From: Promethearchaeota archaeon
GTDB taxonomy: Archaea > Asgardarchaeota > Lokiarchaeia > Sigyniarchaeales > SOKP01
Length of the DNA: 15,803 nucleotides
Assembly (NCBI GenBank): GCA_013375475.1
Contig: JABXKD010000004.1
Coordinates: 76,789-92,591, forward strand
Direction of reading: 5' to 3'
The notes under the pieces: model-generated
What the model saw: only the letters and a program-made list of their open reading frames with translations
Databases searched by the model: none
Told to the model about the DNA's origin: nothing
Shown: positions 1 through 11,751 of the stretch, in pieces
Layout of the letters: each line of letters starts with the position of its first letter
Numbering within the stretch: the first letter of the stretch is position 1
Program-made: the position numbers and the translations under genes

Positions 1-1146
1 ATTGATATCCCCTACTATCCCATAATGAGCAACATTAAAAATAGGTGCACTGGGATCCTTATTAATTGCAACAATTACACCAGAGTTCTCCATACCAACA
101 ATATGCTGGATAGCCCCGGAAATACCACAGGCAATATATAGCTTTGGAGAAACAGTTACTCCCGTTTGGCCGATTTGTCTATCTGGTTCAAGCCAATTTA
201 ACTCAATCGTTATTCTTGAACCCCCTAATTCGGCACCCAGTGCGTTAGCTAAATCTTCAATAAGTTTGAAATTTTCCTTAGAACCTACTCCTCGTCCGCC
301 TGCAACTATAATTTTTGCGTCTTCGAGATTCACAATAGCTTTGCTCGTATTGATAACTTTTACAATCTTTGAAACAGAATCTTTTTCTTCAAACGAATAA
401 TTAATTTTTCTAATAGATGCTTTTTTTTTCCTTTTTTTAGGTGCTATGAAAATCCCAGGTCTCACTGTAGCCATTTGTGGTCGACTAGAGGGAGTTCTAA
501 TCGTAGCCATAATATTACCCCCGAAAGTAGGTCGAGTTTGAAGAAGATTCTTCGTCTCGAGATCGATACTTAAGGCGGTACAATCTGCAGTTAACCCGGC
601 ATTAAGTCTTTTAGCTACTCTTGGCGCAAAATCTCTTCCGGTTGGGGTAGCTCCGATTAATATTATTTCCGGTTTATTTTCAATTATTAACTCTGAAATC
701 ACTTTTACGTATAAATCCGAATAGTAATCTTTCAAAATAGGCGATTTCACATATATTATTTCGTCCATTCCATATTGGCCAAAATCTTCTAATTGTTCGT
801 CGAAGCTATCTCCTAAAATTACAAATGTTAATTTTACACTTAATGTGTCTGATAATTCTCGTCCTTTTCCTAATAATTGGAAAGCTACATTATGAATCTT
901 CTTTTTATAATGTTCAGCTATAACCCAAACACCTTTGAACTGAGAGATATCCATTTTCTCAGCTGCATATTCATCACGATCTAGTTTTATAGCTTCTACA
1001 GGACAAATTTCCACACATGCTCCACAAAGTGTACAATTCGGCAATATTTTCGCTTTATCGTCCTCTAATTCAATAGCTCCAAAGGGACAGCTGTCTATAC
1101 AGTTTCCACAGCCAGTACAAAGTTCATCGTCAATATTAATACTCAA
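1..1146 (-). CDS. etfA: Electron transfer flavoprotein alpha subunit with N-terminal 2x[4Fe-4S] ferredoxin domain (3' end runs off window)
   Basis: Not in the ORF track; translated manually from TTG at 1146, 6 nt after AGGAGGAG. Begins MSINIDDELCTGCGNCIDSCPFGAI...CTLCGACVEICPVEAI (two CxxCxxCxxxCP). EtfA motifs follow: GLTADCT, QTRPTFGGNIMATI, RPQMATVRPG, IVAGGRG, QIGQTGVTVSPKLYIACGISGAIQH, AINKDPSAPIF. Frame is continuous to base 1. Confidence 0.96.
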   Translation of the reverse strand, partial: MSINIDDELCTGCGNCIDSCPFGAIELEDDKAKILPNCTLCGACVEICPVEAIKLDRDEYAAEKMDISQFKGVWVIAEHYKKKIHNVAFQLLGKGRELSDTLSVKLTFVILGDSFDEQLEDFGQYGMDEIIYVKSPILKDYYSDLYVKVISELIIENKPEIILIGATPTGRDFAPRVAKRLNAGLTADCTALSIDLETKNLLQTRPTFGGNIMATIRTPSSRPQMATVRPGIFIAPKKRKKKASIRKINYSFEEKDSVSKIVKVINTSKAIVNLEDAKIIVAGGRGVGSKENFKLIEDLANALGAELGGSRITIELNWLEPDRQIGQTGVTVSPKLYIACGISGAIQHIVGMENSGVIVAINKDPSAPIFNVAHYGIVGDIN

Positions 1147-1152
1147 TTTAGG

Positions 1153-1160
1153 CTCCTCCT
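1153..1160 (-). promoter_or_regulatory. Shine-Dalgarno site of etfA overlapping the etfB stop codon
   Basis: Minus strand reads TAGGAGGAGCCTAAA-TTG; the TAG is the etfB stop. Confidence 0.8.
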
Positions 1161-1965
1161 AAAAAACCTTATCTTTTTTTAAATTTTGGCATAATTGTAG
1201 GACTATTTCTTCAATTGTTCCTTTTAGTATAACACGATCACCCTTTCTTTCAGGAGAGAAAATTTTCCATACTTCGGTATTCGAACCATTTAATCCAATT
1301 TTAGATTTATCAGCGTTTAAAGCGTCGGCGTCGTAATGAATAATTTTGGAGTTATCGTGTGCTTTCAGAATTCCAGCCATGCTAGGATACCGAGGATGGT
1401 TAATATCATTTAAAACGGATATTAACGCGGGTAATTTTGTTTCAATTACTACGATCTCAACTGCTCTAAATTTTCTTTCAGCGACTAATTTATTCTCATT
1501 TAATTCTACATTCAAAACATACGCAACTTGTGGAATTCCTAATTCTTCGGCTAGTTCTGGGGGAACTTGCCCAGTATCCCCGTCTATAGCTTGAGCACCA
1601 CAAATAACAAGATATTTTTCTTCAGAACCGGATTCAGTTAGTATTTTTTTGATTGCTAGTGCTAAAGTATAGGATGTAGCAAGCGTATCTGCTCCAGCAA
1701 AAGCTCTATCTGTTAATAGATATCCTTTGTCTGCGCCCATCGCTAAGGCTTCTCTTAGTATTTCTTCTGCCTGCGGAGGGCCCATACTCAGAACTATAAC
1801 TTCAACACCATGTTTTTCCTTTAAATTTAGAGCTAATTCTAGAGCATTTCGATCGTTGGGGTTGACTACAGATAAAATCCCCTCTCTTACAAGCGTATTG
1901 GTTTTCGGGTCTATTTTTACCTCTGATACGCCTGGTACTTGTTTTATGCAAACAAATATTTTCAA
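1159..1965 (-). CDS. etfB: Electron transfer flavoprotein beta subunit (FixA/EtfB)
   Basis: MKIFVCIKQVP start, NPND..ALE.AL, SMGPP, DRAFAGADTLATSYTLA, GAQAIDGDTGQV, PRYPS; TTG start; adjacent to etfA. Confidence 0.97.
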   Translation of the reverse strand: MKIFVCIKQVPGVSEVKIDPKTNTLVREGILSVVNPNDRNALELALNLKEKHGVEVIVLSMGPPQAEEILREALAMGADKGYLLTDRAFAGADTLATSYTLALAIKKILTESGSEEKYLVICGAQAIDGDTGQVPPELAEELGIPQVAYVLNVELNENKLVAERKFRAVEIVVIETKLPALISVLNDINHPRYPSMAGILKAHDNSKIIHYDADALNADKSKIGLNGSNTEVWKIFSPERKGDRVILKGTIEEIVLQLCQNLKKDKVF

Positions 1966-2123
1966 ATCGAAATCCCTTTTTATTTTTAGCTCTCTTTAGA
2001 ATAAATACTATCAATTTTTTATTAAAACGAATAATTTATTCAAGAAAAATAAATTTTCGATATTAAACAAAAATATGAAAGAAAAATTAGTTAAATAATA
2101 ATAATGAAACTCATTTATATCAA

Positions 2124-3278
2124 CTAAGCTCCTTTTCTTAGTAAAGTAGTAGCAATTACTAATCTTTGAATTTCACTTGTTCCCTCGTAAATTTCACCCA
2201 TCTTTGCATCTCTAAAGTATCTCTCTACAGGATACGCTTTCATTAAGCCATAACCTCCGTGTATTTGGACCGCACCATGGGCAGCTAGCATCGCAGCTTC
2301 AGAAGCAACTAATTTCGCCATAGAACTTGCCATTCCAAAATCCTCTCCTTTATCGTGTAAATAAGCTGCTTTATAAGTAAATAATCGTGCTGATTCAATA
2401 GCAACCGCCATATCGGCAATTTTCCATTGAATAGCTTGGAATCTTCCGATAGGTTTGTTAAACTGAACTCTTTCATTAGCATACTTAATTGAGGCTTCTA
2501 ATGCAGCTTGTCCTAAACCGACACATTGCGCGGCAATACCTATTCTTCCAAAATCCAATATTTTCATTGCCATTTTAAAACCCTCGCCAGGATTGCCTAA
2601 AATATTCTCTTGAGGAACTCTTACGTCTTGAAATACGAGTTCTGAGGTGTTGGATGCTCGAACTCCCATTTTATCCTCTTTAACCCCCACGGAATAACCA
2701 GGTGTATCAGCATCTACGATAAAAACGGTCATTTGTTTCCTGCTATCTTTTTCACCCGTTTTAGCAACTACAAGTAATGTCCCCGCGATACCACCAGATG
2801 TTGCAAATATCTTGGTTCCATTGAGTATGTAATCGTCTCCATCTTTAACAGCAGTTAATTGAACTCCTCCCGCATCGCTTCCAGCATTCGCTTCTGTAAG
2901 ACAGAAAGCTCCCACCTTATTACCTTTTGCGAGATCAATTAAAAATTTTTGTTTCTGTTCTTCCGTACCAAACTTATAAATAGGATACGCAGCAACGCCA
3001 TTGTGTACTGCTGTTGTAATTCCCCAAGCAGCGTCTCCGCGCGCAATTTCTTCTATTATGATGCTAAAACCTATTGTATCTTCGTGAAGTCCAGCTCCTC
3101 CATATTCTTCTGGTATACAACCACCAAAAAAATTCATTTCTTTCATTTTTTGAAAAACAGCATCGTTCAATTCTTGCTTTTCATCGCTTTCTCGAGCGAC
3201 AGGGACAATATACTCTTCAGCAAACTGTCTCGTAATTTTTTTTAACATTTTCTGTTTTTCAGTAAGCGAAAATTCCAT
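2124..3278 (-). CDS. bcd: Short-chain acyl-CoA (butyryl-CoA-type) dehydrogenase
   Basis: IPEEYGGAG, FCLTEANAGSDA, LNGTKIF, EDKMGVRAS, LDFGRIGIAAQ, RVQFNKPI, QIHGGYG, catalytic IYEGTSEIQ; 384 aa; next to etfBA. Exact substrate cannot be determined. Confidence 0.93.
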   Translation of the reverse strand: MEFSLTEKQKMLKKITRQFAEEYIVPVARESDEKQELNDAVFQKMKEMNFFGGCIPEEYGGAGLHEDTIGFSIIIEEIARGDAAWGITTAVHNGVAAYPIYKFGTEEQKQKFLIDLAKGNKVGAFCLTEANAGSDAGGVQLTAVKDGDDYILNGTKIFATSGGIAGTLLVVAKTGEKDSRKQMTVFIVDADTPGYSVGVKEDKMGVRASNTSELVFQDVRVPQENILGNPGEGFKMAMKILDFGRIGIAAQCVGLGQAALEASIKYANERVQFNKPIGRFQAIQWKIADMAVAIESARLFTYKAAYLHDKGEDFGMASSMAKLVASEAAMLAAHGAVQIHGGYGLMKAYPVERYFRDAKMGEIYEGTSEIQRLVIATTLLRKGA

Positions 3279-3395
3279 AAAATCACTATTAAGTCTTGTT
3301 ATTTTTATTTTTTAAATATATAATATAATTTAAACTATCTTAAAAGATAAATTCATCCATTATAGAGTATTGTTATAGCGTTTTCTAACATGTAT

Positions 3396-4160
3396 TTACG
3401 ATCTTTCCAAGAATTCCTTTAGTTTTTGTTTCGGGTCTCCCGAAGAAAAAAGCTCTTGAAAAGATTCTCCTTCCTTTTGAAAACCTTCCTCATTGTTAAA
3501 GATCCCCATTTGGATCAATTGCTTGCTTAAGGTAATGGCTCTCCCGGAATTATTTACCATCATATTTGCTATTTCTTTTACCTTTGTCTCAAGTTCTGAC
3601 AACGGAACAAGTTCATTTATTAAACCAATATTTAAAGCTTCTTGAGCGTTAATGATTCTTGAAGTGTAGATTAACTCCTTTGCCTTCATTGGGCCAATTA
3701 AGCGAACTAATCTCTGAGTGGCTCCCGCGGCAGGTGTCATCCCCCACTTTGTTTCAACTTGACCAAATTTTGCATTATCGGCAGCAATAATAATGTCTGC
3801 ACATAACATAAGCTCAAATCCCGCCGTAAGGTTCAATCCTTTTATTGCTGCAATAACCGGAATTGGAAGTTTTTCAATTTTAGTAAACAAATTCTGTAGA
3901 GTTCTAGTCATTTCTCCTGCCTTAGATTCTTCAAGAGTTACGAGCCATTTAATATCAAGTCCAACAGTAAAAACTTCGTCTAAAGAAGTAGTAATTACCA
4001 AAACTCGGATTTTATTATTTGGTTTAATCTCTTTTTCAAGAATTTGATCCATTTCGTTAGCTACAGCAAGATCAAATGTATTTTTTTTATTAATGTTGTT
4101 AAGATAGAGCCAAAAGATTTCATCTTCTAATTTAGTAAGCCAGAATTTATAGTTCGCCAT
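3396..4160 (-). CDS. Enoyl-CoA hydratase/isomerase (crotonase) family protein
   Basis: FTVGLDI, PIPVIAAIKG, AGFELMLCAD and FGQVETKWG (both catalytic Glu positions present), GATQRLVRLIG, AQEALNIGLIN. Confidence 0.93.
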   Translation of the reverse strand: MANYKFWLTKLEDEIFWLYLNNINKKNTFDLAVANEMDQILEKEIKPNNKIRVLVITTSLDEVFTVGLDIKWLVTLEESKAGEMTRTLQNLFTKIEKLPIPVIAAIKGLNLTAGFELMLCADIIIAADNAKFGQVETKWGMTPAAGATQRLVRLIGPMKAKELIYTSRIINAQEALNIGLINELVPLSELETKVKEIANMMVNNSGRAITLSKQLIQMGIFNNEEGFQKEGESFQELFSSGDPKQKLKEFLERS

Positions 4161-4207
4161 AATTTTTTTGTATAATTTTTATTTAGATTCATTTATATGT
4201 GTTATAA

Positions 4208-5512
4208 TTAATGAATTTCATAGCCCGAAAGATCGCTAAATTCTTTTTTAAGCCGATCCCGAAAATTAGGATGAGCAATTGCAATCAAACTTATTGCTCG
4301 TTCACGAATTGTTTTTCCTCTTAGGTTAGCAATGCCATATTCCGTTATTATATAATGAACATCGTTACGAGAAGTTGTCACACACGAACCATTATATAAT
4401 TTTGGAACAATTCGACTGATGGTTCCAGCTTTATTCGTTGATGGAAGAGCAATAATTGATTTACCTCCTGGGGATAAACTAGATGCTCGAACAAAATCAA
4501 CTTGCCCTCCAACGCCCGAAAATTGCTGATATCCTAAAGTATCAGCGCAAACTTGCCCAAATAAATCAACTTGGAGGGCAGAATTTATTGAAATTAATTT
4601 GTCAACCTTTCCAGCGTTCAAAATGTTATTTGTATAATCAACGGGATGCATTTTAACATCAGTATTGTTATCGACAAACTGATACAGTTTTTTTGTTCCC
4701 ATCAAGAAAGTTGCTGTAAATTTTCCTGGATTTAAATTGTTGAATTTATTTGTAATGATTCCTTTCTCGTAAAGCTCAACAACTCCGTCAGAAAACATTT
4801 CAGAATGTATTCCTAAATCTTTTTTGTCTATCAAAAATTTTAAAGCAGCATCTGGAATCCCCCCAATTCCTAACTGAAGGTTTGCATGATTAGGAACTAG
4901 TGAAGCAATATTCTGACCTATTCTTTCTTCAATTTCAGTAATAACTGGGGGAGTAAGTTCATTCAGTGATCTATCTGTTTCAACTATAAAATCGACTTTA
5001 GAATAATGAATTGAACTCCCCATTGTTCTAGGCATTTGTCTATTCACTTCAGCAATAACTAATTTTGCCGACTTTGATGCTTGTAAAGTGTAGTCAACTG
5101 AAACACCGAAACTCATATCACCGTTTTCATCCGGGGGTGATAACTGGATTAAAGCAACATCGATAGGGATAATGTTATCTCTAAACAAGCGAGGGATTTC
5201 TGAAAAGAATACAGGAGTATAATCTGCCCTGTCTTCCTTTATCGCTTTTCGGGTTCCATCGCCTGCAAATAAAGAGATATGCCTGAAATTATCCTTCATG
5301 TCGGGAAGGCAATAATTACACTCTCCTAGCGGAACCATATGAATAATTTTTACATTTTTAAGGCGTTCTTTTTGTCTCACAAGCTCATCTACTAAAGTTG
5401 TGGGTTCTCCAGCAGCATGACCAAACACTACAATATCTCCAGATTTAATCTGTGCTATAGCCTTTTCCTTAGAGGTAACTTTCTGAAAATATTCATGTCT
5501 CCAATTCTGCAT
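4208..5512 (-). CDS. cat2: Acetyl-CoA hydrolase/transferase family; 4-hydroxybutyrate/butyrate CoA-transferase-like
   Basis: DVALIQLSPPD..G.MSFG, AEVNRQMP, LQLGIGGIP, GIHSEM (catalytic Glu), SINSALQVDLFGQV, SGVGGQVDF, GGKSIIALPST, ITEYGIA.LRG, IAHP.FR; 434 aa. Confidence 0.92.
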   Translation of the reverse strand: MQNWRHEYFQKVTSKEKAIAQIKSGDIVVFGHAAGEPTTLVDELVRQKERLKNVKIIHMVPLGECNYCLPDMKDNFRHISLFAGDGTRKAIKEDRADYTPVFFSEIPRLFRDNIIPIDVALIQLSPPDENGDMSFGVSVDYTLQASKSAKLVIAEVNRQMPRTMGSSIHYSKVDFIVETDRSLNELTPPVITEIEERIGQNIASLVPNHANLQLGIGGIPDAALKFLIDKKDLGIHSEMFSDGVVELYEKGIITNKFNNLNPGKFTATFLMGTKKLYQFVDNNTDVKMHPVDYTNNILNAGKVDKLISINSALQVDLFGQVCADTLGYQQFSGVGGQVDFVRASSLSPGGKSIIALPSTNKAGTISRIVPKLYNGSCVTTSRNDVHYIITEYGIANLRGKTIRERAISLIAIAHPNFRDRLKKEFSDLSGYEIH

Positions 5513-8940: not shown

Positions 8941-8952
8941 GATTTAGCTATT

Positions 8953-9618
8953 TTAAGAACTAGTGGCTGGCGGTCTGATTTTTTCTCTTTCTGCTAATCT
9001 TTCTGAGTGTTCTTTCTTTAGATCAGCTAATTTATTCTGTTTTTTAATAAAGTTCTTATTTATTTCCGTGATATCAGTTTCAAGATTATTTAAATCTTTC
9101 TGAAGTTTTAGGTAAGTTTCCTCTGCTCTTGAAGTCTTCTCGCTAGGAGCATTTTCACTGACTAATTTAACATATACTAACATCTTTTTCGCTAGATTAC
9201 CTCTGTCTTTAGCTATATGAAGCTTCTTATTAGCAAGTTTTACCTTTACTTCCGCAATTTCAGTTTCTCCATTTGCTATCTTACGCTGAGTTTCAGCAAT
9301 CTTTGTTTGAATTTCAGCAACCCTTTCATTATAAATAGCTTGATCTTTCTCTATTTTTAAACCTTCATCACCATATTGCAATAGATCTTTTACTTTTACT
9401 TTTTTTTCAATTAACTTCTTTGTTTTCTCAGCTAAGCGTTCTCTTACCTTAGTAAGCTCAACTTCGGCCTCAACAAGCATTTCTCTAGCTTTAGCTCTTT
9501 TTACTGTTAGTTTAGCTAAAGACTTCATTTCATTTGCAGATTCTTCTTCCTGTTTCGCTATAATAGAATTTTCATCTGCTAATCTTTCCACATTTTTAAT
9601 CTCTTCCATATTCATCAT
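8953..9618 (-). CDS. All-helical coiled-coil protein of unknown function
   Basis: 221 aa, rich in E/K/A/L, with regular (I/L/V)A heptads (VAEIQTK IAETQRK IANGETE IAEVKVK LANKKLH IAKDRGN LAKKMLV); helix breaks at QYGDEG and ENAPSEK. Confidence 0.85.
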   Translation of the reverse strand: MMNMEEIKNVERLADENSIIAKQEEESANEMKSLAKLTVKRAKAREMLVEAEVELTKVRERLAEKTKKLIEKKVKVKDLLQYGDEGLKIEKDQAIYNERVAEIQTKIAETQRKIANGETEIAEVKVKLANKKLHIAKDRGNLAKKMLVYVKLVSENAPSEKTSRAEETYLKLQKDLNNLETDITEINKNFIKKQNKLADLKKEHSERLAEREKIRPPATSS

Positions 9619-9704: not shown

Positions 9705-9848
9705 CTATCCATAAATCTCATCTTCGTCCTCTAAATCTTCGTCTTCGTCGTCATCTTCATAATCCTCCTCTTCCTCCTCTTCTTCCTCTTCATCATTATC
9801 GTCTTCATATTCATCAGATTCATAATCATACTTCTTTTTCATTTCCAT
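9705..9848 (-). CDS. Unannotated highly acidic micro-protein (47 aa) ending in IYG
   Basis: Manual translation MEMKKKYDYESDEYEDDNDEEEEEEEEEDYEDDDEDEDLEDEDEIYG*; 32 of 47 residues are D/E with mixed synonymous codons; SD-like AGGAGTGGAG just upstream. Alternative in-frame ATGs lie at 9878 (57 aa) and 9842. Too short for the ORF track. Confidence 0.75.
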   Translation of the reverse strand: MEMKKKYDYESDEYEDDNDEEEEEEEEEDYEDDDEDEDLEDEDEIYG

Positions 9849-9914
9849 CGGTTCTCCACTCCTTTTATGATATTTCATCAGTTTTTAATTATTTTTAAAG
9901 ATAATTCTTAATCA

Positions 9915-9999
9915 TGATAACATAATATTTAAATGTTTTCATATGCAAACAATTCCTAGAATCGACAACCTTATATACATTGAAAACATATTTTTATCA
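9915..9999. promoter_or_regulatory. Divergent promoter region with TATA-like boxes and repeated TGAWAACAT boxes
   Basis: TGATAACAT (9915-9923) and ATGTTTTCA (9933-9941) flank TTTAAATA on the minus strand (9925-9932); TTATATA on plus (9971-9977) is followed by TGAAAACAT (9981-9989). Confidence 0.5.
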
Positions 10000-10035: not shown

Positions 10036-10605
10036 ATGGCAAAAAAAAATCCTTCAAAGAAAAGTAATTATCTTGGTTTTAGGCTTTCGGAAGAAGTACT
10101 CAACAAGCTAGATCTAATTGCACAGCAGGAGAATAAGTCGCGTGGTTTGGTTGCCAAAGATGCTATTGAGCAATGGCTTAATTTAGAATTATTTAATCAA
10201 AATAACAACTTGATTATGATATCTAAAACCACATTCTCTAAATTTTTATCTAAAGTGAATGATGAAGATTTAAATAGTTTAGCTAATGAAGTTTCTTCCT
10301 TATATTCTGACCTAATGAAATTTTTGGTAGCAGAACCTATGAATGACGATTCATTGAAGTCTTATACGGGAGTTTCAATTGAATTATTTGGAAAAAATGG
10401 ATTAAAATGGTTTAATACTATCGATATTCAGATTCAAAAGAATATTTTAATCTTTAGAGGTTTACATGACTTAGATGAGATTTTTTCAAATTACTTTTCA
10501 TTCTTATACAAAAATCTTTTATCCGAATTTTTTGAGTTAGAACTTATATTAACACGGGAAGAAAAAACCTCAAATTTAGTACATTTAGAGTTTGACTTTA
10601 AATGA
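10036..10605 (+). CDS. Ribbon-helix-helix (CopG/MetJ-like) DNA-binding protein with uncharacterised C-terminal alpha/beta domain
   Basis: YLGFRLSEEVLNKLDLIAQQENKSRGLVAKDAIEQWL fits the RHH strand-helix-helix pattern; about 135 further residues follow. Confidence 0.75.
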   Translation: MAKKNPSKKSNYLGFRLSEEVLNKLDLIAQQENKSRGLVAKDAIEQWLNLELFNQNNNLIMISKTTFSKFLSKVNDEDLNSLANEVSSLYSDLMKFLVAEPMNDDSLKSYTGVSIELFGKNGLKWFNTIDIQIQKNILIFRGLHDLDEIFSNYFSFLYKNLLSEFFELELILTREEKTSNLVHLEFDFK

Positions 10606-10662: not shown

Positions 10663-11751
10663 ATGAATTTTAATAAAGTAGAACAAGCTAAAATCTATTT
10701 ATTAGCCTTTACAGTCCAAGATTTAAAGGGTATATGTAAAAAATATGGAATTAGAGGTTTTTCAAACTTAAATAAAGATGACATAATAAATCTTATTTTA
10801 ATATCAATTCCTAATAATATATTTCCCTCATTTTTAAAGGATTTGGAGCAAAAATCGTTAAATTCGATTATTTCACTAGTCCCAAAATATTTTAAAAAAG
10901 AAAATCCAACAAAACTCGAATCTTTACAGTTTGATGATAAAAATAATATTATAAGGTTAATCTTTAAAGGCTTCAAGTGGGAAATATATACAAATATTCA
11001 ATTTTTAAATTTAGAGAAAAAAACTGAACCTTTAAATTTCAAGTATAAATGTAATTGTGTATATGCTAAAGATGGAGGATTTTGTAGCCATTTTTGGGTA
11101 GGTATGATATGGGGATTCCGCAAATTCAACATAAATGCTTCCCGTTGGGATAAATTTAACCTCCCAGAAATATTTGACGAATTAATAAATAATTTGGATT
11201 TTAAATTCTTCTATAAAGACACATCGAAGCAGGAAAAAATTGGAATTTATTCAGTAGAAGAATTTTTAAAAACAAATTTAATGGGTAAAACTAAATTTAA
11301 CTTTGAGGATTTAGAAGATATTTCAGCTAAAGAAATAATAAAATTTATCTCAGGAACAAAAATCAAGATTACAGAAAACGAGAAATTAAAGCCAGTAAAA
11401 AAGAAATTAATTGATTTAATAAAAGATGAGTTAGATATCGTTGAATTTAGTAAAATGTTTTTTAATTTTAAAAAAAATTCTAGAATTTTAGAAGCTAAAA
11501 AAATTCCAGTAGATATTATTAAGGTTGAATGGGGCCCACCAGTCAATTGTTACGCAAGATTCAGAATGAATGAACAAGATGAAAAAGATCTCGATGTGAT
11601 TATAGAAAATAATCAGATTAAGCATAATAACTGCCATTGGGTTTATCATCGCTCAAATTTTTGTAGCCATTTAATTGCATTTTTTTTACATTTATCGAAC
11701 AGAAATCTTCCAAAAACTCTTGAATATCTTAAAGAATATTCAAAAGAGTAA
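10663..11751 (+). CDS. SWIM zinc-finger protein with Rho_N/SAP-like HeH domain, internally duplicated
   Basis: FTVQDLKGICKKYGIRGFSNLNKDDIINLI (HeH); CNC-x8-CSH (SWIM); second copy HNNC-x9-CSHLIAFF at the C-terminus. Confidence 0.78.
   Translation: MNFNKVEQAKIYLLAFTVQDLKGICKKYGIRGFSNLNKDDIINLILISIPNNIFPSFLKDLEQKSLNSIISLVPKYFKKENPTKLESLQFDDKNNIIRLIFKGFKWEIYTNIQFLNLEKKTEPLNFKYKCNCVYAKDGGFCSHFWVGMIWGFRKFNINASRWDKFNLPEIFDELINNLDFKFFYKDTSKQEKIGIYSVEEFLKTNLMGKTKFNFEDLEDISAKEIIKFISGTKIKITENEKLKPVKKKLIDLIKDELDIVEFSKMFFNFKKNSRILEAKKIPVDIIKVEWGPPVNCYARFRMNEQDEKDLDVIIENNQIKHNNCHWVYHRSNFCSHLIAFFLHLSNRNLPKTLEYLKEYSKE

Follow-up and report, generated by a model that had tools for sequence, protein, structure and literature searches.

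A conserved polyacidic micro-protein gene with an HbYX-type C-terminus beside an RHH-like regulator in a family of Promethearchaeia

A polyacidic micro-protein gene and its relatives

The DNA analysed here (the window; 15,803 nucleotides of contig JABXKD010000004.1, assembly GCA_013375475.1, Promethearchaeota archaeon, an Asgard archaeon of Loki type) belongs to a genome of 3.92 Mb in 288 contigs with 32.5% G+C. A small open reading frame (ORF) on its minus strand (9705..9848, stop codon at 9705-9707) encodes a polyacidic micro-protein of 47 amino acids, flanked by a divergent gene for a ribbon-helix-helix (RHH)-like regulator and, downstream on the same strand, by a gene for a basic coiled-coil protein. 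Aspartate and glutamate (D/E) make up 32 of the 47 residues (68%), giving a net charge of -29; lysines stand at K4-K6, tyrosines at positions 7, 9, 14, 30 and 46, and the last three residues are I-Y-G. The codons of this tail lie at 9708..9716 and those of a basic/aromatic head, K4 to Y14 (KKKYDYESDEY), at 9807..9839, both on the minus strand. A preliminary description of this DNA had reported a 47-residue ORF with 32 acidic residues, a KKK head and spaced tyrosines, without naming its strand, and had added a Shine-Dalgarno (SD)-like site and an upstream TATA-like box. All of this was borne out on the minus strand, with the two signals present at 9854-9862 and 9926-9933 and conserved in relatives. 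That description did not cover the conservation of the basic/aromatic head, the close association with an RHH-like regulator and operator, or the coiled-coil and Hsp20 partners.

The SD-like site GGAGTGGAG (9854..9862, minus strand) lies 5 nucleotides before the ATG at 9848, and in relatives a GGAGG is found about 13 nucleotides ahead of the ATG. The frame remains open up to a further ATG at 9876-9878, so that a ten-codon N-terminal extension (9849..9878, minus strand) would give a form of 57 residues. The ATG of the relatives aligns with a non-ATG position in the window, and the start is therefore placed at either 9848 or 9878, the former being favoured because of the SD-like site. Across the acidic tract no further frame is open on either strand, and at least 13 D/E among the last 25 residues were found in only 9 of the 49,053 stop-to-stop frames of at least 30 residues in the whole genome. 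The 47-residue form is present letter for letter in the ESM Atlas; neither the exact 47- nor the exact 57-residue sequence was found in a collection of 15 billion proteins. No match of the micro-protein to Pfam (57-residue form, E up to 0.01), NCBIfam or PADLOC was obtained, and a feature search of the ESM Atlas gave no lead (best score 0.82). Membership of the Sem1/DSS1 family, raised in the preliminary description, was not supported, as neither the DSS1_SEM1 family of Pfam (same form and threshold) nor NCBIfam gave a match. From its 68% D/E and the lack of a hydrophobic core, the micro-protein is probably intrinsically disordered.

A DNA contig from another sample carries 28 letters in place of the 91 at 9728-9818, an in-frame difference of 63 nucleotides (21 codons) in the acidic tract, which may reflect either true length variation or a repeat that collapsed during assembly. 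In a comparison with four RNA runs, one metatranscriptome contig mapped to the 3' end of the coiled-coil gene (8946-9168) and none over the peptide ORF, the repeat of which (9728-9814) lay outside the comparison; the result is hence uninformative on transcription of the peptide.

Relatives of the locus were collected through the neighbouring genes first and then with peptide profiles. In what follows, loci, genomes and genera are designated by L, G and g numbers, respectively. After removal of duplicates the collected loci contained 41 distinct small polyacidic ORFs, 34 of which form one alignable family. The same frame is open in all 34 homologues, and their differences in length are whole codons. 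Over 22 ungapped codons in 22 rows of subfamily 1 (171 of 231 pairs usable), the median nonsynonymous (dN) and synonymous (dS) divergences were 0.154 and 0.794, with a dN/dS of 0.19, and synonymous changes were seen at the codons of conserved tyrosines (TAT/TAC), isoleucines (ATT/ATC/ATA) and leucines (TTA/CTA). The peptide profile (A4) matched 34 of the 134 other genomes in the window's Promethearchaeia family (six of 41 in genus g1, 25 of 54 in g22, two of six in g15 and one of four in g16) and none of 265 genomes from the rest of the phylum. All these are minimum counts, as peptides with very long D/E runs escaped the profile searches. The peptides of G100, G129, G098 and G133 were recognised by eye alone, beside the RHH-like gene. 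When 1.84 billion representative proteins were searched with a profile (E up to 0.001), five matches and no others were obtained, all members of the peptide family, each of 54-73 residues and all five with an Hb-Y-X end (a hydrophobic residue, tyrosine and any last residue).

Because of the same-frame homologues, the whole-codon length changes and the dN/dS of 0.19, we conclude on comparative grounds that 9705-9848 is a genuine conserved gene; by the same searches, it is restricted to four genera of one Promethearchaeia family. The acidic tract is a low-complexity repeat with periods of 3, 6 and 9, as would be expected if the ORF were no gene at all but a frame left open by chance in GA-rich trinucleotide repeats. 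This reading is scarcely credible, being contradicted by the dN/dS and by the start context, SD-like site, frame and stop position, which have been kept in 34 homologues over four genera.

Conservation is concentrated at the two ends of the peptide, while the D/E tract between them drifts in length and sequence (27-row alignment A4). In subfamily 1 the head reads M-K-x-x-x-KKKK-YDYEYDDY, and in subfamily 2 the YDYEYDDY type is replaced by KKKK-x-SD(V/I)YG(D/E)EF; motifs of the YDYEYDDY type are unique to this gene within the window genome, and in one lineage (L093) this head has been lost and the tail retained. The tail follows the pattern [L/I/V]-(E/D)-x-[Y/F/S/V]-(D/N/S)-(E/D)-Hb-Y-X, after which translation stops. 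Its penultimate tyrosine is the sole invariant column of the alignment and is present in all 34 homologues, each of which ends exactly one residue later, none being longer. The position before the tyrosine (-3) is hydrophobic in 32 of the 34 (I in 26, M in three, L in two, V in one, with Q and N in one each), and the last residue varies (S in 26, R in four, G in two, N and T in one each). The preliminary description had set as a test beforehand that a terminal Hb-Y-X be kept while the D/E tract drifts, and had named orthologues lacking the penultimate tyrosine or the reading frame as evidence to the contrary; the outcome agrees with its expectation on both counts.

In the passages of PMC13022661 and PMC11475706 relied on here, the HbYX motif is defined as a hydrophobic residue, a tyrosine and any residue at the C-terminus. 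The I-Y-G end of the window protein has this form, and a tyrosine at a fixed distance from the end, preceded by a hydrophobic residue and followed by a free last position, matches the definition across the family. The motif by itself is weak evidence, and the weight lies on its pattern of conservation in the aligned sequences.

Divergent regulator, operator and neighbouring genes

In an alignment of 22 loci, the region between the two divergent genes is strongly conserved and contains one TATA box for each gene. The TATA box of the micro-protein promoter (TTTAAATA; 9926..9933, minus strand) is near-invariant in these loci. Abutting its upstream side is a palindromic operator (9934..9951) with the consensus TGTTTTCAnnTGAAAACA, recognisable in 22 of the 22 loci and carrying one mismatch in the window. 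Before the RHH-like gene, a TATA-like box at 9971-9978 is followed by an operator half-site TGAAAACAT at 9981-9989 (together 9971..9989, plus strand), and this arrangement presumably serves as the promoter of that gene. In the window genome the local palindrome is the only site with two mismatches or fewer, so the operator is local; a wider regulon was not found in this genome, where 69 sites with three mismatches compare with about 64 per shuffle (191 over three shuffles). In other loci, a palindrome with at most three mismatches was found beside 15 of the 22 RHH-like genes examined and in none of four loci lacking such a gene. These palindromes include perfect or near-perfect copies that, in a sister genus, separate an RHH-like paralogue from an Hsp20 gene (L114-L116; perfect in L114).

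The RHH-like regulator itself (10036..10605, plus strand) has 189 residues, comprising a putative N-terminal ribbon-helix-helix and a C-terminal domain of about 140 residues with no known fold. Its matches are all below threshold: RHH_1 of Pfam at E 0.01 (16.2 bits against a cut-off of 20.5), a CopG profile from the PDB at E 0.12, and aCcr1 of NCBIfam at E 0.0032 (17.3 bits against a cut-off of 60). In the Atlas clusters nearest to it, RHH_1 is present in 79-96% of members. The C-terminal domain contains a conserved H-D-x-D-E at residues 144-148, where a ligand may bind. Judging from loci L114-L116, L111, L104, L024 and L027, the RHH-like family may act as a stress repressor, of heat-shock type, in this Promethearchaeia family.

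An RHH-like gene of about 189 residues adjoins the peptide gene in 31 of the 34 loci. In 29 of these the two genes diverge; in the other two the RHH-like gene immediately precedes the peptide gene on its own strand, and in one of them (L036) the genes overlap by 13 nucleotides. On the other side, the coiled-coil gene of the window (8953..9618, minus strand) encodes 218 residues from the MEEIK start at 9609, with a net charge of +7 and an isoelectric point (pI) of 9.25. A coiled-coil gene of this size (about 218 residues) is found downstream of the peptide gene, in the same orientation, in 29 of the 34 loci, directly in 25 and behind an inserted Hsp20 gene in four, and its products carry net charges of +7 to +10 with a pI of about 9.3. 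Where the two genes adjoin directly, the gaps range from 10 to 161 nucleotides and are only 10-37 nucleotides in several loci, which leaves no room for a separate promoter; by this spacing, the peptide and coiled-coil genes are likely to be co-transcribed at the short-gap loci. An Hsp20 gene (PF00011, E about 1e-24) adjoins the peptide gene in six of the 34 loci. Subfamily-2 peptides in L080 and L081 have neither a coiled-coil nor an RHH-like neighbour.

Assignment of the coiled-coil protein to PspA_IM30, Snf7 or another named family found no support in a scan of all 31 members, which gave scattered coiled-coil noise only, and a profile search of the PDB returned only designed or generic coiled coils. 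Neither this protein nor the product of the 362-residue gene beyond the regulator (10663-11751, plus strand) matched a Pfam, NCBIfam or PADLOC family. The latter is Rho_N/SAP-like at its N-terminus (E 1.3e-4, narrowly missing the Pfam cut-off) and contains a pair of Cys-x-Cys...Cys-x-His stretches that we take to resemble SWIM; it is also found behind the RHH-like gene in several relatives (L085, L087, L090). Beyond the coiled-coil gene, a gene of about 214 residues recurs (L086:371-1015, L091:462-1097 and similar loci), whose product has a coiled-coil tail and an N-terminal domain without a Pfam match. Further away in the window (1-5512, minus strand), genes for electron transfer flavoprotein alpha (with a ferredoxin domain) and beta, acyl-CoA dehydrogenase, enoyl-CoA hydratase and acetyl-CoA hydrolase/transferase form what looks like a cluster for beta-oxidation or butyrate metabolism. 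Rfam gave no match in the window. Two of the collected loci, L087 and L095, are labelled as Nanopelagicaceae bacterium and Thorarchaeota archaeon, yet their module is that of the Promethearchaeia records; these labels are probably binning or labelling inconsistencies.

Small polyacidic ORFs of other kinds were also encountered. In L107 and L109-L112 (genera g12, g15 and g21), tryptophan-rich polyacidic micro-ORFs with a basic head are divergent from distant RHH-like paralogues, and in L109-L112 they are followed by genes for class-I methyltransferases (Pfam Methyltransf_25/31/11), the C-terminal parts of which we guess to be ATP-grasp-like. In the window genome, an unrelated tryptophan-rich polyacidic micro-ORF of 42 residues (G000:C1:3395-3520, plus strand, equal to L150:1596-1721) ends in ALDFYS. 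It is syntenic in two relatives (L153 and L154, ending in AVDFYS and SLGYYS), all three having an aromatic-Tyr-Ser end, and the gene adjoining it presumably encodes a deoxyhypusine-synthase-like protein; an insensitive single-sequence search with this micro-ORF matched three of 135 genomes. In another context (L151), two tandem polyacidic ORFs rich in tryptophan and tyrosine (G000:C252:15441-15626 and 15733-15888, both on the minus strand) end in WDEDSY and WDEEDE. The window genome seems to be rich in small polyacidic micro-ORFs.

Possible proteasome docking and competing explanations

As the leading mechanism, held tentatively and at somewhat less than an even chance, we propose from these sequence comparisons that the free Hb-Y-X end of the micro-protein would dock into the pockets of the host 20S alpha ring. 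The window genome encodes two 20S alpha genes, four Cdc48 and two PAN-type ATPases. C-termini of the same kind are found on three of the four Cdc48 copies (EDMYR, SNLYK and EDIYR), on one of the two PAN copies (RMYS) and on one of three genes of the PAC2/Pba family (SLYI). The alpha1 subunit (238 residues) finds its best PDB match in an archaeal alpha chain (3h4p_A, E 3.8e-60) and retains K66, G80 and L81 together with P18, G20, L22 and V25, all invariant in 21 relatives. The last four correspond to P17, G19, L21 and V24 of the T. acidophilum 20S proteasome (T20S), the offset of one being deduced from the residue numbers given in PMC10349882. In T20S numbering, alpha1 thus has K66, G19, L21, V24, G80 and L81 of the HbYX pocket, and R34 takes the place of T20S K33. 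In the sections of PMC10349882 used here, K66 is described as forming a salt bridge to the carboxylate and G19 as contacting the tyrosine hydroxyl, L21 and V24 as forming the Hb pocket, and G80 and L81 as making further HbYX contacts; HbYX C-terminal peptides alone are reported there to suffice for gate opening.

A search for PF09409 (PUB), a candidate receptor domain for tails of the p97/Cdc48 kind, gave no match in the window genome, nor in any of 14 control genomes, and is hence uninformative. The usual gate motif of archaeal alpha subunits is Y-D-R; alpha1 of this family (G000:C11, L039:1492-2205, minus strand) has Y-D-M, with a methionine nearly invariant in the 21 relatives. In most genomes of the family, alpha1 is accompanied by another alpha paralogue that is about 45% identical.

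In the proposed mechanism, the operon would consist, in this order, of the micro-protein, Hsp20 in some genomes and the basic coiled-coil protein, divergent from an RHH-like protein that would repress it at the palindrome abutting the TATA box of the peptide. With a repressor operator in that position, we infer that the module is most likely switched on by proteotoxic or other stress. The peptide would carry two short linear motifs, the basic/aromatic head and the tail [L/I]-x-x-aromatic-(D/E)-(D/E)-Hb-Tyr-X-COOH, joined by a drifting D/E linker. Its Hb-Y-X end would enter the inter-subunit alpha pockets, as the tails of Cdc48, PAN and PAC2 do, and docking would tether the polyanionic chain at the 20S gate. 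The tethered peptide might then open the gate independently of ATP or compete for the pockets with the ATPases, its head or acidic tract staying free to hold a basic coiled-coil or Hsp20 partner. A more elaborate form, in which a stress-induced HbYX "plug", a disordered polyanion docked on the alpha ring by its three terminal residues, and the coiled-coil protein (and Hsp20), bound by its head or acidic tract, would make up a two-part, ATP-independent proteasome cap or an adaptor for client delivery, we regard as rather unlikely.

Several observations weigh against docking at the proteasome. Hb-Y-X ends are frequent by chance, being found in 198 of 12,164 ORFs (1.6%) of the window genome, and ProEnd, as cited from part of PMC11475706, puts them at 0.93% of archaeal proteins. 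Q or N occupies the Hb position in two of the 34 homologues, and gate opening is attributed to occupancy of the Hb pocket in the portion of PMC11142061 considered. The head is almost as conserved as the tail, which docking through HbYX does not explain, and the alpha ring is itself acidic, with a net charge of -9 per subunit. The gene is linked to the RHH-like regulator and not to proteasome genes; the complete genome G015 lacks the peptide although both the regulator and the coiled-coil gene are present; and the 34 homologues, being kin from four genera of one family, are not independent. Finally, the five micro-ORFs beside distant RHH-like paralogues end in WEEDM, YEFDD, FEYDY and, in two cases, GYYD, so polyacidic micro-proteins can function there without a canonical tail.

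The alternatives differ mainly in where they place the partner of the peptide. The tail, the head or both might dock a protein of its own module (the coiled-coil protein, Hsp20 or the C-terminal domain of the RHH-like protein), the peptide being a co-factor or a polyanionic partner, a possibility that we consider doubtful and yet serious. The coiled-coil gene downstream in 29 of the 34 loci, with gaps short enough for co-transcription in several, fits this arrangement, as does the pairing of a basic coiled-coil protein (+7 to +10) with peptides whose net charge spans -17 to -29 across homologues. The conserved tail, moreover, extends over more than three residues, with hydrophobic positions at -9, -6 and -3/-2 as in a short amphipathic docking helix, and the head motif also requires a receptor. 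Docking within the module does not, however, predict an invariant tyrosine at a fixed C-terminal distance with a free last residue, which is the HbYX signature, and the subfamily-2 peptides of L080 and L081 would have neither the coiled-coil nor the RHH-like partner beside them.

The peptide could also be a non-specific polyanion, either a holdase of the heat-soluble "Hero" or poly-D/E type or a buffer of Ca, Mg or Fe. Its 68% D/E, the drift of the tract in length and sequence, the Hsp20 neighbour in some loci and the small polyacidic ORFs in unrelated contexts of the same genome (contigs C1 and C252) are all in keeping with such a role, which is nevertheless unlikely, as a bulk polyanion would have no need of the purifying selection seen on two terminal motifs and on the exact stop position. 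As a nucleic-acid mimic, the peptide would titrate the RHH-like repressor off its operator and provide anti-repressor feedback on its own operon. No other neighbour is as constant as the RHH-like gene (31 of 34 loci), the peptide gene directly follows it on the same strand in two loci, including the 13-nucleotide overlap in L036, distant RHH-like paralogues are likewise paired with basic-head polyacidic micro-ORFs (L107, L109-L112), and the net charge would suit a mimic of DNA. A local regulator is to be expected beside its target in any case, however, and this reading leaves the strict positional motif at the C-terminus unexplained; three family members have no adjacent RHH-like gene, and in G015 the regulator is kept although the peptide is absent. 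The HbYX-type peptide of genus g15 is found with Hsp20 and away from RHH-like genes, and a separate tryptophan-rich acidic micro-ORF stands beside an RHH-like paralogue, an arrangement that argues for an effector in proteostasis rather than an anti-repressor. DNA mimicry is considered decidedly unlikely.

Known HbYX carriers and significance

If docking at the 20S proteasome holds, the closest counterparts of the micro-protein would be the tails of Cdc48/VAT and PAN, as well as those of eukaryotic Rpt2/3/5 and p97, in which an acidic run likewise precedes a free C-terminal hydrophobic-Tyr-X. Unlike the hexameric AAA+ proteins Cdc48 and PAN, the micro-protein would be a disordered monomer of 47 residues without an ATPase, with at most one tail per molecule and without homology to them. 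PbaA/PbaB (PAC2) and PI31/Fub1 also bind the proteasome independently of ATP through a C-terminal HbYX; unlike the micro-protein, which is homologous to none of these carriers, they have folded domains and belong to recognised families. To our knowledge, the natural carriers of HbYX are tails of folded regulators, namely AAA+ motors, PA200, PAC/Pba chaperones and PI31. The C-terminal region of PI31 is described as natively disordered in the part of 10.1101/2023.12.11.570853 referred to here. Free HbYX peptides and the dipeptide mimetic ZYA are, like the micro-protein, short unstructured carriers of the motif, and according to the cited sections of PMC10349882 they open the archaeal 20S gate alone. 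Those are laboratory reagents, whereas the micro-protein is a candidate genome-encoded counterpart that would be regulated and that carries a long polyanionic chain. A disordered HbYX micro-protein that stands alone was not found described in the literature searched, although catalogues such as ProEnd or small-protein atlases might list members.

In composition, the micro-protein resembles Sem1/DSS1 and prothymosin-alpha, likewise small acidic proteins that are disordered and have aromatic residues scattered along the chain. It differs from them in its conserved motifs and in its restriction to one archaeal family.

With regard to regulation, the heat-shock repressor Phr of Pyrococcus binds a palindrome and has among its targets Hsp20, VAT1 (a homologue of Cdc48) and the HbYX chaperone PbaA, as stated in the passages of PMC10746257 drawn upon. 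Phr modules thus combine a repressor palindrome at Hsp20 with proteasome-linked promoters; here the palindrome abuts the TATA box, and an Hsp20 gene is a target in sister genera. Unlike Phr, the regulator is RHH-like with a C-terminal domain of about 140 residues, and its operator is confined to a single locus in the window genome. By analogy, the Phr regulon may be considered a parallel for the suggested link of the module to stress and the proteasome.

If the docking reading is correct, a genome-encoded, disordered HbYX peptide that stands alone and has a repressor of its own would represent a new and very simple control of 20S gating. In the two-part form of the cap, the docking tail and the scaffold would be separate gene products. 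Asgard archaea are the archaeal lineage closest to eukaryotes, and it is in this lineage that a tail resembling that of Cdc48/p97 occurs on the micro-protein. The RHH-like regulator, palindrome, Hsp20 and coiled-coil protein make up a candidate stress module in uncultured Promethearchaeia and, whatever the mechanism, a previously unannotated micro-protein family, its regulator and its operator are now defined.

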